A stretch of DNA of 10,138 nucleotides, taken from Gemmatimonadota bacterium. Its GTDB lineage: Bacteria > Latescibacterota > UBA2968 > UBA8231. The notes below the pieces were generated by a model. It ran no database searches, was not told the origin of the DNA, and saw only the letters and a list, made by a program, of their open reading frames with translations. Within the stretch, counting starts at the first letter, position 1; each line of letters starts with the position of its first letter. Of the stretch, positions 688-10,138 are shown piece by piece. Made by a program: the position numbers and the translations under genes. The stretch is from assembly GCA_038153405.1 (NCBI GenBank), contig JAYOYH010000015.1:836-10973 (forward strand), written 5' to 3'.

Positions 688-714
688 ATGTGTGAATACC
701 TATAAGAGGTGAAT

Positions 715-1389
715 ATGGGCGCGAAGAAAAATGACGACCTGCGGATAGCGATGCGTCGAAATGAGGTCTCCCGTCTATTCCGGCGCGGTGTGCGCGACCA
801 AACCGAGATTGCTCGCCGCCTGAGCGAGTCGGGGGAATACGGCAGCGTCTCCCAGCCGACTGTTTCCCGCGATCTGGACTTCATACTCCGGAGCGTGCGC
901 GAACAAGCTGGTCTCGAGACCGGACTGCTTCGGGATGCGATCCAGCAAGAGATCCACGAGGTCAAACGCGAGGCCTGGGATGCCTGGGAAAAGAGCAAAG
1001 AGGACAAGGAGACTTTCAAGGACAAGTCCCCTCAGTTTCGCAAGATCGAGCGGGGCAGCGACGACGACAAGGAAGGTCTCCTCGACCGGGCTCTGCGGAT
1101 GGCAAGCGTCGATGAGGGCTACGTGCTGAGCGACAACTTTGAGTGGACCATCGAGAAGCGCGATCCCAACGGCAAATTTTTGGACATCGTGCTCAATTGC
1201 ATCAAGCAGGAGCGCGAGTTGTTGGGCGTCGATAAACCCGCTGCCGCCAACCCCGATGGCGACGGATCTGTCCTGGAGCTAAGCTTTCGCGGGATGAGCG
1301 ATACCGAGCTGGCCCTGTGTGAGGTCATGGTCAAAACTGGTGACAAGGAGGCCCTGGCTCGGTTTGTCTCAGCGAAGAAGAGAGAATAG
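715..1389 (+). CDS. Phage-type HTH protein resembling a terminase small subunit
   Basis: N-terminal HTH (RRNEVSRLFRRG...QTEIARRL...VSQPTVSRDL), helical EAWDAWEKSK and C-terminal KFLDIVLNCIKQERELLGVDKP. I recognise this pattern from phage proteins usually encoded just before terminase large subunits. ATG at 715 has GAGG (706-709) 5 nt upstream; the ORF track's GTG at 709 overlaps that RBS. Confidence 0.6.
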   Translation: MGAKKNDDLRIAMRRNEVSRLFRRGVRDQTEIARRLSESGEYGSVSQPTVSRDLDFILRSVREQAGLETGLLRDAIQQEIHEVKREAWDAWEKSKEDKETFKDKSPQFRKIERGSDDDKEGLLDRALRMASVDEGYVLSDNFEWTIEKRDPNGKFLDIVLNCIKQERELLGVDKPAAANPDGDGSVLELSFRGMSDTELALCEVMVKTGDKEALARFVSAKKRE

Positions 1390-1594: not shown

Positions 1595-2662
1595 ATGGGT
1601 ATAACAGAAAAATCCGAGGGAATGCAAATCATGACTGAGCTAACTGACTTCGATCTTATCTCATTTAAAGTCGCAGACATAGAAGAAACGGCCAAAATCG
1701 TCAAGCAGATGGACGACGGAGTATTGAAAAAGGCTAAGAGCGTGGGTATACGTGGATATCGTTTACTATCCAAAGTTGCGGAGACGAAGGCTACGCCAGA
1801 AAGACTTGCGTGGTTGAATCTTATGACTCAGTCGGTTACTGCCGTTAATGCCGGAATAAGCGCATTTGAGTCGTGCTCGAACTGGACTTTGAAGGTCGTT
1901 CAACGTGCAGTTTTTGAATGGGAACTCATTACAATTGCCATCAGCGGCAACTTCGAACTTCTTGACAACACGCGCCCGTCTCAAGGTAACCCTATAATCT
2001 TCCCTCAAGAATTTAGAGAACGCCAGTCACGCATTTCCTGCGTAGATAGGTTACGAGCATATACTGCGTTCTGTCTTTGGTCGGATAGAGACTACTATCG
2101 GAAGCGAATTAGTGGGAGAAATATGCAGCGTGCATTCACAGAAGAGCGAAGTCCAACTTTAGGTCCTGAATTAGAGGCAAAAGAGGTAGGGCTATTCTTT
2201 GGTAGTTCATCGGAGACGGATCAAGAAGATTTAGACCGTAGGCGCGTGATTGAGCAGGATGCGATACAAAATGAAATTGCTCGAATAGATCAATGGCTTG
2301 TCGATCCCACTCTTCAGCCGTGGACAGAAAAATTATCCAGATTGGCTGAACAACAAAAGGGACCTATGAGTTACTGGCAGCTTATCGACGTTGGCAGATC
2401 TGTTTCTGAAGAATTGCAAAACCTCGATCTGCACTATGCATATTCAATCTATATGAAGGGCTCAATGGCCCTTCATGGATCAACGTTTGAACAATTTTTG
2501 GATATATCGACCGAAAATACTTTTGTGTTCCCGAAGATAATGATCGACGAAGAACAACACGATACTGAACTGGATTTTATAGCGAGTAGTTGTAATGTGA
2601 TGATGGTCTTATTGGCCTCTATGGATCAGAAAATACTTAATAAGTCTGAATTGCGAGGATAG
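1595..2662 (+). CDS. Hypothetical protein, DUF5677-like (HEPN-related helical family)
   Basis: 355-aa ORF with the motifs LKVVQRAVFEWELITIAI (R..hE) and YSIYMKGSMALHGS (Y...S..hHG.), which resemble DUF5677. The true start may be ATG 1631, after GAGGG at 1616-1620. Confidence 0.55.
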   Translation: MGITEKSEGMQIMTELTDFDLISFKVADIEETAKIVKQMDDGVLKKAKSVGIRGYRLLSKVAETKATPERLAWLNLMTQSVTAVNAGISAFESCSNWTLKVVQRAVFEWELITIAISGNFELLDNTRPSQGNPIIFPQEFRERQSRISCVDRLRAYTAFCLWSDRDYYRKRISGRNMQRAFTEERSPTLGPELEAKEVGLFFGSSSETDQEDLDRRRVIEQDAIQNEIARIDQWLVDPTLQPWTEKLSRLAEQQKGPMSYWQLIDVGRSVSEELQNLDLHYAYSIYMKGSMALHGSTFEQFLDISTENTFVFPKIMIDEEQHDTELDFIASSCNVMMVLLASMDQKILNKSELRG

Positions 2663-2739: not shown

Positions 2740-3078
2740 CTACATTCTCTTCTCAATCAGCACAATCTCAAGTGCCAACTCCACGACCTCGCTGATCATC
2801 ACTTCCAGAATTCGGCTCAAGGAGCCACCGAAAAGAGTGAGTTGCTCTGGGGTAAGAGATCCCAACTCTGCGCGAAACTCGGGAGAGTCCAGCACGGCAT
2901 CGTAGGCTACTTTGGCGCGGTCTACGATGCGCTGACGGTCCTTGGGTGTGAACTCGTCGGCATCGGAATGCTGGGCAAGTCCTGAGACAATACCAGCGCG
3001 CAGAGCATGTGTTAGTCGTAGAAGTGAGACGAAAACGTAAAGATGGAAGCTACAAACGTGTTGATACATTTCGGGCAT
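2740..3078 (-). CDS. Small hypothetical protein, possibly only the 3' remnant (~2740-3000) of a longer gene
   Basis: The C-terminal ~85 aa read as amphipathic helices (DEFTPKDRQRIVDRAKVAYDAVLDSPEFRAEL...) and are GC-richer than the flanks. The first ~25 codons overlap a + strand pseudogene and have no clear RBS. Confidence 0.35.
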   Translation of the reverse strand: MPEMYQHVCSFHLYVFVSLLRLTHALRAGIVSGLAQHSDADEFTPKDRQRIVDRAKVAYDAVLDSPEFRAELGSLTPEQLTLFGGSLSRILEVMISEVVELALEIVLIEKRM

Positions 3079-3422: not shown

Positions 3423-3983
3423 TTATGATGAATGAACCGAGGGGAGAATTACTACATACTCACCAAACTGAATATCAAAGCTACTCGTGTAAATCTTGAA
3501 ATTAGGGAATTGCCCCATAATCTTATCAACAGATTCTGCGTCAATATGTATCTTGGCTAAAGTCTTTGAAGGTTTTAAGATGCCTTCTTTCGCATTCAGG
3601 TTGATTCCAAAATAATTACCATATGGGTTTTGTATATCTTCTCCTGAATGGCTTTGAGAAATTTTTTGCTCTGCGCTCCGAAAATCAACAAGACTTCCTC
3701 GTCCAGTGTGTTCAATCCAGTCGGCGATTATCCAAAAAGTATTGTCCACTGCTTGCTCACCATAGAGGCGAATTGACAGCCACTCGTTTTGAAACTCTTG
3801 CGGATTATCAATGGCTATCGATTCAAGGTGCTCAGCAATTTTTTTATCAATTGCAGCCCCTTTTTTCTCATCTAAGAATGAACGGGCATATTCAACAGCA
3901 CTTCCAGCAACTTCTCGTTGAAGTTTTTGTAGTCTTTCTGTTGGTAGATAAATACCTTCACCCCGGATAAAAAAATAAGCCAT
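3423..3983 (-). CDS. Hypothetical protein with possible ADP-ribosyltransferase (R-S-E type) fold
   Basis: 186-aa AT-rich ORF with a GGAG RBS about 8 nt upstream of the ATG. The motifs YFFIRGE, EWLSIRL and IQFGEYVVIL occur in the order of the R, S and E strands of ARTs. The ORF is well supported; the function is inference. Confidence 0.55.
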   Translation of the reverse strand: MAYFFIRGEGIYLPTERLQKLQREVAGSAVEYARSFLDEKKGAAIDKKIAEHLESIAIDNPQEFQNEWLSIRLYGEQAVDNTFWIIADWIEHTGRGSLVDFRSAEQKISQSHSGEDIQNPYGNYFGINLNAKEGILKPSKTLAKIHIDAESVDKIMGQFPNFKIYTSSFDIQFGEYVVILPSVHSS

Positions 3984-6423: not shown

Positions 6424-9028
6424 CGTCAAAGCTCCTATCGATCACAACCGGTATCGACTGCACTTCGGCATCGGTCTCGGCATCGCGAAGTATCAGTTTG
6501 TAAGGGATCGCTTTGTCAAAGGTGCCCGCTTGCAGCTCAAGGCGAAGCGACTTCTTGCGCTCATCGATGCTATCCGATGTGCTATCGAATGTAATGGTCT
6601 CGACCGAGGTGACCTGGCGGAAGCCGTCGTAGACTGCAGCGCGCAATACAATGGGCTTTCTGCGTTCGCTGACGGCCTCGGTCTGGATAATCTCAAAACG
6701 ATAAGTCGGCGTCGTGATTTTGTGATTGGTCCCGAGCACTTGTATGGAAACCTTCTCGCTGCGCGAAGCTTCCTTCTCCTTGCCCCGTAGGTGGGTGACG
6801 GTCACGAGCGGAACGATCACTTCCTGCGGCATCGCACCGCCGTGGATAAAGCGCGCACCACCCGAGAAGTGGAAGCGGTTGGCAGCGCGGGGCACCCAGA
6901 ACTCCATCTCGCCTCCGGCACCGGCCGTCACGCCAATAGAGCCGTGATGCGCCTCGGGCGCTGTGCCGAGTTCCGGTCCGATGATATAGCGCTTCTTGGC
7001 GATTGCTGCATGGGCCGGTTTCGTGCTCAGTGCGCTTTTGTCGGTTTGGTCGGGGGCTTCTCGTTGGAAGAGGAAGCCGTGGTCCGCAGTAACCCACACC
7101 TTGGCGGCGTTTAACTTATTGACGCAGAATTGGACTAATTCTCCTAACTCGTCAATACAGTCAGAGACGGCCTCGAAGGTCTCGCCTTCGGTCGAGGCGC
7201 TATCCCCTCGAGCATCGATAATATTGTGGTAGATATAAACGACCCGTTTGCCCTGAGTAAACTCGCGGGCTTGTTCGAGTTTCATCACCAGTAAGTCTTT
7301 TGCCTGGCAGGCCATTCCGTCTACAGTGGCCAGCTGCTTGCTGCGCCCTTCGGTGCCGACGGCCGGTTTGTCATCGACCAGCACATCCCCTTTGGTATTA
7401 TAGGATAGCGTCTCGTGGGGGAGGAGGCTTGCCATGCCGAGGGCTGTATAGGATGGCAAAACACCTAACATAGCCGAAAGTTGGGCGTTCATTCGGTAGC
7501 GGCCATTGAGCGACTCGGTCAGCTCTCGGGCGGCCTCGTAGCGGAATGCATCGCTGATGATGACAAAAGCCCGTTTGCGCTCAGACTCAGCGAGATGTGA
7601 GGAGATTTTGCTGGCATAGAAGTTTTGCTGAGCTGGCAGGTCTTTGAGCGACCACTCGTCCAGGAAGCCGGCATCCAGTAGGCGACTCCACTCGATGCCA
7701 AGGGGTTGCAAAAAGCCCTGGTCGTAAACGCGTTCGACCTCTTCGGCCAGCGTCTTGAGCAAGTCCCAGCCCTGGCCGAGTGCAGGTTTGGAATAGGTGC
7801 AGAAATGGCGATAGAGTTGGTCGAAGCGATGGAGGTCTTTCTGGTAGGCTGTGAGCAGATCTAAAGGCGTTTCAAAGCTCAGGGCATATCGGTGCTCGGT
7901 ATGCAGGGCAAAGAGCTCAGCGGCCGCTTCGATAGCGTCGTAGGCATCGGCGATGGCCCTTCGCTCTGGTAGATCGCTCCCAGGACCAGATAGCCAGTGT
8001 CCTGCCTTCCGCGCACTGGTTATCCCTGCTATGAAGTCCACATCTACGGACTCGGTATTGCTCAGTAGGTGTTCCTTCAAAGTGGAGACTACGCGCCTCT
8101 CGGCTGCCCAGAACGTGAAGACATTCTTGATGGTCTCGAGATCGAGCGTTGCCAGGGGCTCATCGACCTTTTGCTCAGAGGATACGGCGGCCGCTGCAGC
8201 GGCGTAGCTGCTCGCACTGCTATTGGAGTCTCGCCACTGGGTTAGGAAGACCACCGCATTGCGCCGGCCAGCAGGGGGCAGGTGGTGGTGGGTGAGGGAC
8301 TCCATCTCTGCTCCCTCTGTCTGATGGAAGAGCTCTGCGACAAAGAGCCTGCGCAAAAGCCCGGCCACAGTGGGGTCCTCGACCGCGTAGCCGAATTCGC
8401 GTCGCATCAGTGCCCAGAAGGAGTCCAGCAGATCCATTTTTTCAAGTGTCGATATTACTTCGGGGATTTCACTCAATTCAAAGCGATGACGCTCGACGTG
8501 ACTATGGTATAAAGCGCGCAGCACGTCGAAGGGGTGTGCAACCGAACTGCCGACCAATACGGCCATCATCTTGAGGTCGATGCCCGCCTCGTCGTCTTTG
8601 GTGCTAATGAGTCGCGCCAGTTTCTTGCGTCGGTCCTGGCTGCCCATAAATGTGGCGCGTGCTTTGAGGTGGTCGCGTAGGGAGAGTCGGCTCAGTCCCA
8701 GTTCTTGCAGCCAGATACTGGTCACATCGGCGTGGAACTCGGCGCTATAGAGCCGAATATCGAGCAGCCAGTCCTCTTCGGCTGGTAGGGTTTCGCCTTT
8801 AGTGTAGATCAGGTATTTACCAGTAGGGTCCTCGCGCTCCAGTCGCAGCTTGGCCGAAAGGCCACCGACCTCTTCGACGTGGAGCACTTTTATATCACTA
8901 AAATTCGCCGGTAGATCCTCTCGCACATATTCGGCAAACTCTTCGTTGGGATCGTGCCAGAAGACCAGTCGTGCGCCTTCCGTTACGAACTTCTGGTGGA
9001 GTGCCTGATCGACTTGTTCTGCCTTCAT
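6413..9028 (-). CDS. pglZ: BREX type 1 alkaline-phosphatase-superfamily protein PglZ
   Basis: 871 aa with PglZ motifs RLVFWHDP, AFVIISDAFRYE, LPSYTALGMASLLPH, YIYHNIIDARGD, VTADHGFLF and RFIHGGAMPQEVIVP. Sits between pglX and brxL. Confidence 0.96.
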   Translation of the reverse strand: MKAEQVDQALHQKFVTEGARLVFWHDPNEEFAEYVREDLPANFSDIKVLHVEEVGGLSAKLRLEREDPTGKYLIYTKGETLPAEEDWLLDIRLYSAEFHADVTSIWLQELGLSRLSLRDHLKARATFMGSQDRRKKLARLISTKDDEAGIDLKMMAVLVGSSVAHPFDVLRALYHSHVERHRFELSEIPEVISTLEKMDLLDSFWALMRREFGYAVEDPTVAGLLRRLFVAELFHQTEGAEMESLTHHHLPPAGRRNAVVFLTQWRDSNSSASSYAAAAAAVSSEQKVDEPLATLDLETIKNVFTFWAAERRVVSTLKEHLLSNTESVDVDFIAGITSARKAGHWLSGPGSDLPERRAIADAYDAIEAAAELFALHTEHRYALSFETPLDLLTAYQKDLHRFDQLYRHFCTYSKPALGQGWDLLKTLAEEVERVYDQGFLQPLGIEWSRLLDAGFLDEWSLKDLPAQQNFYASKISSHLAESERKRAFVIISDAFRYEAARELTESLNGRYRMNAQLSAMLGVLPSYTALGMASLLPHETLSYNTKGDVLVDDKPAVGTEGRSKQLATVDGMACQAKDLLVMKLEQAREFTQGKRVVYIYHNIIDARGDSASTEGETFEAVSDCIDELGELVQFCVNKLNAAKVWVTADHGFLFQREAPDQTDKSALSTKPAHAAIAKKRYIIGPELGTAPEAHHGSIGVTAGAGGEMEFWVPRAANRFHFSGGARFIHGGAMPQEVIVPLVTVTHLRGKEKEASRSEKVSIQVLGTNHKITTPTYRFEIIQTEAVSERRKPIVLRAAVYDGFRQVTSVETITFDSTSDSIDERKKSLRLELQAGTFDKAIPYKLILRDAETDAEVQSIPVVIDRSFDDDF

Positions 9029-9063
9029 TATGTTGTCGCCTTGCTACCGTGCATGGTCTTCGC
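9028..9063 (-). repeat. Degenerate second copy of the pglX 3' end (matches 9913-9948, offset 885 bp)
   Basis: 9037-9063 vs 9922-9948 match at 22/27 nt with no gaps. It translates AKTMHGSKATT* vs pglX VKAVHGKKAEV*, with the TAA in the same register. Confidence 0.8.
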
Positions 9064-9068
9064 CACAT

Positions 9069-9908
9069 TCAATCACCTTGAATGAAGTTACGTCGTTTTA
9101 GGTAGCTAATCAGTATGCTTTGGATGTCTGCTTTTAGCTTGCCCGGTTGTTCGAAATCCACTCGTCTATGGTGTTCGAAGTCGAATGGAGTCACGTCATT
9201 CAATAAATCCTTGGTTCTGTTCTGTTTGAGAATCAGGATCTGGTCGTCATTCTTTTTTGTTAGAGCATAGCTGAGTTCAAAAACGACGTTTGAGTTCGGG
9301 TGGCACTTTGCAGAAGCCACATCTGAATCTGCTTTGCTCTGCTTAGCACCGTTTTCAGCGTCTATGCTCAGAACCTGAGAGATATTCGTCACATCAAATA
9401 TCGCGAACATACAGAGGTCGATATTCTTCTTGATAGCTTGAACTATATCACCCGCCCCATCCTCGTCTCGTGTTGCCTCAACAACCTCTAAGGTGGCTCG
9501 GGGGGAATGGTTGTTGTTTATGTGGTCAACCGCTTCTTTTAGAGCCTTGCCAATCTTACTTCTCGCTGGATTGTGGTCCGATTGCCAACTGTAGAAAATC
9601 CAAGGCTGGTGTCCAATCGGAACATTTAGCCGTTCGAAATATAGTTCGTTCTCAGTTAGGTCACAGTTCGCGAGACGATATACACCGCTACCGTCGAGGT
9701 AGAATCGCACCTCCTCTCCACGCAGAAAAGGGGTATACCATTCTTGCGACTCAAGTGTGTCGCGATCTTCTATCGCAAATCCGCGATAGCCATTCTTGAG
9801 GATACTCTTCTTCAGGATGCTAAAAGACGGATCGTTCTGTTTGACTTCTTCTGGGTCGGCTATTGCGTTTGAGACATGCCAACACTTGACAGTTGTAAAT
9901 CTTGCCAC
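9069..9908 (-). CDS. BREX-embedded accessory protein: unknown ~100-aa N-terminal domain plus TIR-like/NDT-like domain
   Basis: 279 aa with a GTG start 4 nt after the pglX stop and GGAGGT inside the last pglX codons. The C-terminal motifs IFYSWQSD, G..DI...I...ID.C...IFDVT, PNSNVVFELSYA (putative catalytic Glu) and PFDF.H.R are typical of TIR/NDT-fold nucleotide-processing domains. Confidence 0.75.
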   Translation of the reverse strand: MARFTTVKCWHVSNAIADPEEVKQNDPSFSILKKSILKNGYRGFAIEDRDTLESQEWYTPFLRGEEVRFYLDGSGVYRLANCDLTENELYFERLNVPIGHQPWIFYSWQSDHNPARSKIGKALKEAVDHINNNHSPRATLEVVEATRDEDGAGDIVQAIKKNIDLCMFAIFDVTNISQVLSIDAENGAKQSKADSDVASAKCHPNSNVVFELSYALTKKNDDQILILKQNRTKDLLNDVTPFDFEHHRRVDFEQPGKLKADIQSILISYLKRRNFIQGD

Positions 9909-9912
9909 GCGA

Positions 9913-10138
9913 TTACACCTCCGCCTTTTTACCGTGCACGGCCTTCACTTCAGCCAATAGGTCGCCGAATTTGCCATAGTTTACTTTCACGCCGTCGTCG
10001 AGGTTGAGTTCAATGCGCATATCGGCGTAGTGGCGAAGCTTTTCATCAAATACGAGAAGTTCCACTTGTTGCTTTTCGAGCGTGGATCGCTCCTTCTCGA
10101 GTCGCTTCTGATGGGCAGTAGAGGTTGCCCCTTGGATG
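9913..10138 (-). CDS. pglX: BREX adenine methyltransferase PglX (BrxX), C-terminal 74 codons; gene runs off the window
   Basis: Not in the ORF track. My minus-strand translation is IQGATSTAHQKRLEKERSTLEKQQVELLVFDEKLRHYADMRIELNLDDGVKVNYGKFGDLLAEVKAVHGKKAEV*, which contains the characteristic PglX C-terminal LDDGVKVNYGKFGDLLA motif upstream of pglZ. Confidence 0.93.
   Translation of the reverse strand, partial: IQGATSTAHQKRLEKERSTLEKQQVELLVFDEKLRHYADMRIELNLDDGVKVNYGKFGDLLAEVKAVHGKKAEV

Follow-up and report, generated by a model that had tools for sequence, protein, structure and literature searches.

Accessory genes within bacteriophage exclusion (BREX) operons are known from several reports (PMC8565348, PMC9009780, PMC11341690, PMC12839542, PMC12707154). 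In Salmonella, type 1 BREX carries an ATPase and DUF4435/PARIS between pglX and pglZ (PMC9009780, PMC11341690), and rearrangement of pglX is also known (PMC9881135, PMC9716671). The available passages on intra-BREX accessory genes offer no route by which a gene could enter an operon coupled stop to start without silencing pglZ. Here we describe a type 1 BREX operon of a Gemmatimonadota bacterium (GTDB Latescibacterota; assembly GCA_038153405.1), contained in part in a 10,138-nt stretch of contig JAYOYH010000015.1 (positions 836 to 10,973), hereafter the window, in which a 279-aa cargo gene separates pglX from pglZ and is bracketed by two versions of the pglX 3' end: the active tail upstream and, directly before pglZ, a relic. 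We propose, with moderate confidence, that this relic is the remnant of an older full-length pglX, which was displaced by a tandem second pglX allele together with a TIR-like gene (pglX-cargo-pglX-pglZ) and then mostly deleted, its stub being kept as a translational relay.

Between them, the 40 nt that separate the cargo stop (9069) from the pglZ start (9028) and the final bases of the cargo gene hold a copy of the pglX end; the copies (9037-9073 and 9922-9958) make up the top direct repeat of the window and are identical at 28 of 37 nt with an offset of 885. Aligned at their stop codons, which are in register, the two tails share 31 of 46 nt (binomial 2e-8), including 22 of 27 in a core; they end in HGSKATT (relic) and HGKKAEV (active), and all 6 nt of the final two sense codons differ. 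What precedes pglZ is a 46-nt copy of the pglX 3' end in degenerate form. An origin by chance, or by convergence on a ribosome-binding site (RBS) rich in purines with a stop-start overlap, has a negligible probability. The pglX tail and gene starts do have a Shine-Dalgarno (SD)-like composition in common, but the RBS lies outside the part of the tails that matches, and SD motifs common to both therefore do not account for the match. The match, stop-registered over a distance of 885 nt, exceeds 200 of 200 shuffles, and when the 37-nt core was compared with the whole genome (9,704,016 positions) the relic was the best match, the next best reaching 26 identities, once; the shuffle test and this ranking together refute an accidental origin.

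The longest exact run between the copies is only 9 nt. Because a repeat of this kind is a poor substrate for homologous recombination, the tail pair is a scar, or fossil, rather than a working swap site, and the cargo is locked in, its flanking copies having diverged too far to recombine readily.

The ancestral state of the junction can be judged from other BREX loci. Among 27 cargo-free junctions (pglX-pglZ spacing below 60 nt), the pglX stop overlaps the pglZ start in 23 (11 by 1 nt, 7 by 4 and 5 by 8); 20 of these overlaps are firm and three hinge on the choice of start codon. TAATG proper, the overlap found at the window's pglZ, occurs in 5 of the 27, in three lineages. A closely related empty allele was found in sequencing runs X5 and X6, which come from different studies: the contig lacks 901 nt and connects position 9932, in the pglX tail, with position 9030, at the pglZ start, through 16 other letters, and a loose end in run X7 matches the same cargo-free joint. 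The tail of this empty relative, HGSKEES, has the same length and is joined to pglZ by TAATG. The HGSK motif, including the SK codons, is common to the relic and the empty relative and is present in none of 18 active tails of the H/Q-G type. At the 16 comparable tail positions, the informative sites unite relic and empty relative four times, relic and active tail twice, and active tail and empty relative twice; identity to the empty relative over the 16 readable nt is 10/16 and 8/16 for the two copies. A sequence-only reading of this stretch had reported the 40-nt spacer, the 22/27 core and its offset, the tail peptides, TAATG, the differing last two codons and the GGAGGT RBS, all of which hold, and its claim that pglX was once coupled directly to pglZ agrees with the cargo-free junctions and the empty relative. 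The downstream copy does look like the older resident tail, the upstream one provides the RBS of the cargo gene, and duplicated tails are found again at other loci.

The active tail appears to have a different history. Compared with the window, the linked X5 contig has differences at 10 of 71 nt of the pglX end and at 1 of 61 nt of the pglZ start (Fisher p 0.011), whereas among 23 pairs of related loci the identity of the tail falls short of that of pglZ by about 0.03 at most; because of this contrast, the active pglX end looks imported over more than the length of the repeat. In the runs that hold the window's own strain (one study, possibly the source) the continuity of relic and pglZ is confirmed. 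A 208-nt piece of the cargo gene with zero differences was recovered from run X6, and a piece covering the relic and the cargo end from run X8. A search of 167 other genomes from the window's phylum found PglZ in two, both with empty junctions, and a genome-contig search with PglZ as a single protein returned one locus.

Comparable duplications recur elsewhere. We collected 45 spaced junctions (at least 60 nt) on contigs of metagenomes, on plasmids and in E. coli and GTDB genomes, of which 40 remained after removal of five near-identical kin (L067, L068, L089, L090 and L093), or 39 without the window's locus; duplicate rows of one locus were also dropped, as were L008, L012, L016, L018, L082, L085, L120 and L121, which are without a pglX end or a pglZ start. 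At 8 of the 39 other loci a copy of the pglX 3' end outscored all shuffles, in a sample that is small, biased towards Pseudomonadota and one PglZ subfamily, and not fully independent; the controls gave 0 of 40 on the reverse strand and 0 of 27 for the pglZ head. Within the window's own PglZ subfamily, copies were present at 3 of 9 loci. The cargo loci tested from enterobacteria, Acinetobacter and Oceanisphaera (L059, L060, L069 and L091) showed no tail copy, and at these the cargo itself overlaps the pglZ start. Duplication of the tail is one route among several, accounting for about a fifth of the sampled spaced junctions.

The copies form a size series of four whole second pglX genes followed by remnants of 134, 73, 54 and 35 nt. 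L112 has the order pglX-ATPase pair-pglX, its second copy being ATGA-coupled to pglZ and 97% identical over the last 1,040 nt, with a middle that is unalignable. At L009 the whole second pglX is 92% identical over the last 995 nt and about 35-40% identical in amino acids before that, and at L098 it is 68% identical over the C-terminal 370 nt. L083 (G643:C1, about 1772900-1780000) is a cargo-free tandem of adjacent pglX genes, 99.5% identical with differences mainly in the last ~130 nt, in which the second gene is coupled to pglZ. The remnants comprise 134 nt at L084, about 73 nt at L101, about 54 nt at L013 and, at L019, a copy of 31/35 nt with sharp ends. Those at L101 and L013 are deletion products, since each fuses two separate parts of pglX. 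Duplicated or truncated pglX genes were reportedly noted by Goldfarb in 2015.

Some further matches were set aside: at L086 the match falls inside an antitoxin-like open reading frame (ORF); at L026 it lay within the cargo ORF and an initial p of 0.010 was not reproduced on repeat testing; L027 (p 0.013) was not counted, nor were the suggestive in-frame tail-like ends of L079 (p 0.015-0.053) and L103 (p 0.04-0.10). By eye, the gene-free junctions of L114 and L116 repeat 13-16 nt of the tail end ahead of pglZ and may be the smallest members of the series. An ATPase and partner pair lies directly behind pglX at L084, L101, L064 and L086; at L084 and L101 the pglX remnant follows this pair, and at L084 it is itself followed by a repeat of the first bases of the ATPase gene. 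The unrelated loci L013 and L104 both hold a protein of ~1000 aa between pglX and pglZ, which we take from its sequence to be a defence-type reverse transcriptase.

A tandem duplication followed by erosion is the simplest account of this series. In the first step, a pglX-cargo unit would enter by a single crossover within the conserved 3' part of pglX, about 1 kb long, leaving the left-hand gene with the donor tail and RBS and the right-hand gene with the resident tail that overlaps the pglZ start. The redundant right-hand pglX would next be deleted down to its last codons. Finally, ribosomes arriving from the cargo gene are predicted to re-initiate in the 14-codon frame that remains and to stop on the pglZ ATG, which would explain why the stub was kept. 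The observed parts of this scheme are the duplicate, the coupled ancestral junction and, at other loci, second copies both whole and partial.

A short cassette or long target duplication, by which the cargo entered with only about 45 nt of the pglX end duplicated and the copies diverged afterwards, appears rather unlikely, although the length of 37-46 nt and the stop/start position fit the class of restriction-modification (RM) insertions with repeats above 30 bp, several of 46-47 bp and often across a start or stop (PMC2853133), and the near-perfect, sharply bounded 35-nt copy at L019 would fit it too. Against it stand the whole or internally deleted copies at L009, L083, L098, L112, L013, L084 and L101, which it leaves unexplained, the divergence of the active pglX end from the empty relative beyond the repeat, and an identity of 67-76% here versus 93-100% for the cases in Table 2 of PMC2853133. 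The sequence-only reading had proposed such a cassette, made of a replacement tail and cargo; the size series favours a pglX-cargo-pglX tandem with deletion instead, and together with the end divergence it points to a longer, eroded duplication, so that the inserted unit was probably longer than a short cassette. Its broader suggestion of a general mechanism for loading and swapping cargo fits poorly with the majority of spaced loci, which have no significant copy, and with the short exact run. Nor were the excised junctions that it envisaged seen, there being no cargo-skipping joint in the contigs of runs X1-X4, which hold the window's strain; contigs drop rare variants, so this is not evidence of absence. 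Taken as a whole, that interpretation is partly supported.

The same tandem could also have arisen in another order, with the cargo placed first between brxC and the old pglX, or into an existing pglX tandem, whereupon the old pglX decayed and was replaced in function by the upstream one. In favour of this, brxU lies between brxC and pglX on pEFER (PMC8565348), genes are found between brxC and pglX at L095 and directly upstream of pglX at L061, and L083 is a tandem without cargo. We nevertheless consider this order improbable, as no trace of a second tail is seen at the junction of the closest empty relative and the active tail supplies a strong, well-spaced RBS for the cargo, as expected if tail and cargo travelled together.

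Integration by a site-specific (attL/attR) or other recombinase is very unlikely. The position does recur, and recombinase-driven inversions of pglX have been reported (PMC9881135), but the boundaries of the copies range from 35 nt to whole genes in place of a fixed core, no inverted repeat at the tail copies is among the 25 longest listed for the window, and no integrase was recognised by eye among the ORFs listed for the copy-positive intervals.

Several observations weigh against displacement and erosion of an older pglX as the origin of the relic. The tail of the empty relative can be compared at 16 positions only, which makes the ancestry signal modest; this relative, with pglZ at 94-98%, belongs to another strain or species, and the divergence test is based on a single contig of 153 nt. 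No significant pglX copy was detected at 31 of the 39 other spaced loci, and L083 may have arisen by a recent local duplication that had nothing to do with cargo. The size series comes from unrelated genomes, with no intermediate of the window's own lineage seen. As for the relay, its test is post hoc, the chance at the window's locus alone is about 0.3 and both other frames pass, and the RBS of the relic's TTG is poor (-2.6).

The relay itself is predicted from reading-frame geometry. The relic frame overlaps its neighbours at both ends (TTGA, -4; TAATG, -1), in the manner of coupled genes, and all five significant remnants lie in the reading frame opened at the upstream stop. The four free-standing remnants (the window's locus, L013, L084 and L101) each have an in-frame start placed -4 or +2 relative to the upstream stop (null product about 0.003, post hoc), and the L019 remnant is fused in frame. 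At the window's locus the RBS of pglZ (-4.0 kcal/mol) is weaker than at 21 of the 27 cargo-free junctions. The remnants may relay translation onto pglZ, and it is predicted that the relic was kept because it hands ribosomes to this gene.

The cargo gene differs in composition from its neighbours, with a GC content of 46% (49% at third positions, GC3) compared with 55-57% (GC3 66-68%) for the large core genes brxC, pglZ and brxL and the main part of pglX. Its product matches PF10137 with E 3e-4 and 21.2 bits, below the curated cut-off of 24.7, and 42 of 44 aligned members of its family, which has 61 proteins including itself, match as well; E211 is invariant in the TIR-like domain of the family. 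The structure model (pLDDT 87) has TIR-STING proteins as its top Foldseek matches (E 3e-5), with nucleoside deoxyribosyltransferases scoring close. No STING domain, cNMP-binding domain or PADLOC match was found in the protein, and an Atlas search with it returned only hypothetical proteins and PF10137 at 0.88. We regard it as a putative CAP12/Pycsar-type TIR-like protein with a conserved glutamate and, from its location, as a putative defence gene. In the family alignment (A1), residues 1-100 form a conserved beta-rich N-terminal domain with no family match, whose Atlas neighbours are unnamed, mostly cyanobacterial clusters. Scans of viral sequences gave 22 loci that match the cargo in its TIR-like half only and have no pglZ start, one contig on which a pglX tail occurs but no pglZ start, and three tail-pattern matches likewise without one.

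Features of the pglX-pglZ junction and neighbouring genes, in window coordinates.
Feature	Position	Strand	Basis or remark
pglX 3' end (BREX-1 methyltransferase), last 74 codons	9913..10138	-	NF033452, E 2e-18, and genome context; gene runs beyond the window past a 10-N gap
Active pglX tail, LAEVKAVHGKKAEV and stop; upstream repeat copy	9913..9958	-	Sequence
GGAGGT RBS of the cargo gene	9917..9922	-	Precedes the cargo GTG by 8 nt; duplex energy -10.8 kcal/mol
Cargo gene, 279 aa	9069..9908	-	840 nt; ~100-aa beta-rich N-terminal domain and putative CAP12/Pycsar-type TIR-like domain
Relic pglX tail, LNVAKTMHGSKATT and stop; downstream repeat copy	9028..9073	-	Shares 31/46 nt with the active tail; stop codons in register
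Relic 14-codon open frame, predicted translational relay	9028..9072	-	TTG overlaps the cargo TGA by 4 nt; TAA overlaps the pglZ ATG by 1 nt
Stop-start overlap TAATG at the pglZ start, also seen in cargo-free loci	9026..9030	-	Sequence
pglZ, type A, 871 aa	6413..9028	-	TIGR02687, E 5e-240; PF08665
brxL, 684 aa	4375..6429	-	Profile match (HMM)

The window holds the distal part of the operon, on the minus strand, with brxA, brxB, brxC and the remainder of pglX upstream on the contig; the locus has the type 1 gene order brxA-brxB-brxC-pglX-pglZ (type A)-brxL. The genes pglZ and brxL and the pglX tail were named by hidden Markov model (HMM) profiles, and brxA, brxB and brxC by ORF position, size and sequence. 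A 10-N scaffold gap lies within pglX just beyond the window's right end (G000:C15, about 10974-10983), and the apparent frameshift of this gene, a 1163-aa ORF with the 74-aa tail in another frame, is an artefact of it. That PglX is intact, as the sequence-only reading held, is unreadable in the assembly at this gap, while contigs from runs X1, X2 and X4 do cross the window's end, their flanks suggesting a gap of ~11 nt. No second pglX was found elsewhere in the genome by tblastn, and a promoter and terminator scan gave a signal at chance level.

Beyond brxL lie three ORFs, at 1595-2662 (+), 3423-3983 (-) and 2740-3078 (-), which encode 355, 186 and 112 aa and are possible further island cargo; the first two (GC 43% and 39%) had no match in Pfam, PADLOC or NCBIfam. 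Near the contig start, window positions 709-1389 (+) encode a 226-aa protein with a weak N-terminal helix-turn-helix (HTH) match (Arg_repressor, E 1e-4). On the other side, upstream of brxA (G000:C15, 19476-35365), two large low-GC proteins of 1127 and 1318 aa have C-termini that are alike, and the ORFs after them presumably encode relatives of ADP-ribosylglycohydrolase and helicase. The region upstream of brxA is likely a larger defence island.

The locus and its sister loci offer both an entry route into a coupled operon (tandem pglX and erosion) and a reason for persistence of the scar (the relay), each of which is testable, and suggest one way for defence operons to gain genes unbroken. 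As the scars mark resident and incoming tails, the history of cargo becomes readable from genomes. More tentatively, BREX might run a recombinase-free cycle that takes in cargo together with new specificities, in which a pglX-cargo unit integrates by homologous recombination in the conserved 3' kilobase of pglX and can loop out of tandem loci as a transferable circle, while the displaced pglX shrinks to a mini-ORF selected as a ribosome relay for pglZ; stubs would then be functional parts of operon repair as well as a record of cargo history.

The literature searched gives no account, in its titles and available passages, of duplicated pglX tails around cargo or of a relay role, which is weak evidence of novelty. 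Among described systems, the locus most resembles the insertion of RM genes accompanied by a long duplication of the target (Furuta, Abe and Kobayashi 2010, PMC2853133), in which a defence gene lies between direct repeats above 30 bp that extend over a stop or start, the target stays intact, no mobile element is inside and an empty allele exists. Here, repeats of 37-46 nt surround an 840-nt gene, within the insert limit of 20 kb, and the single-copy empty allele is represented by the X5 and X6 contigs and the X7 loose end, from a related strain or species. The published systems have RM cargo and near-identical repeats, with a single copy at an intraspecies empty site, whereas in this operon a BREX core gene serves as target, the insert is a single TIR-like gene in place of R and M genes, identity is 67-76% (31/46 over the tails) and duplicates reach whole-gene length at sister loci. 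With type 1 BREX carrying embedded accessory genes (PMC9009780, PMC11341690; BrxU on pEFER, PMC8565348) it shares the six-gene system and the extra gene in the operon. Known variation of pglX by recombination, such as programmed inversions (PMC9881135), likewise uses conserved pglX ends as substrates, and extra pglX pieces occur, but there inverted repeats and a recombinase switch the specificity region, while here a direct repeat of the extreme 3' end brackets cargo. In the shuffling of tandem lpl paralogs in Staphylococcus aureus (PMC2568036), too, a 3' gene end and the start of the next gene move as one unit, through recombination within conserved coding sequence; the lpl paralogs persist as an array, whereas in this BREX operon the second copy has been reduced to a stub.

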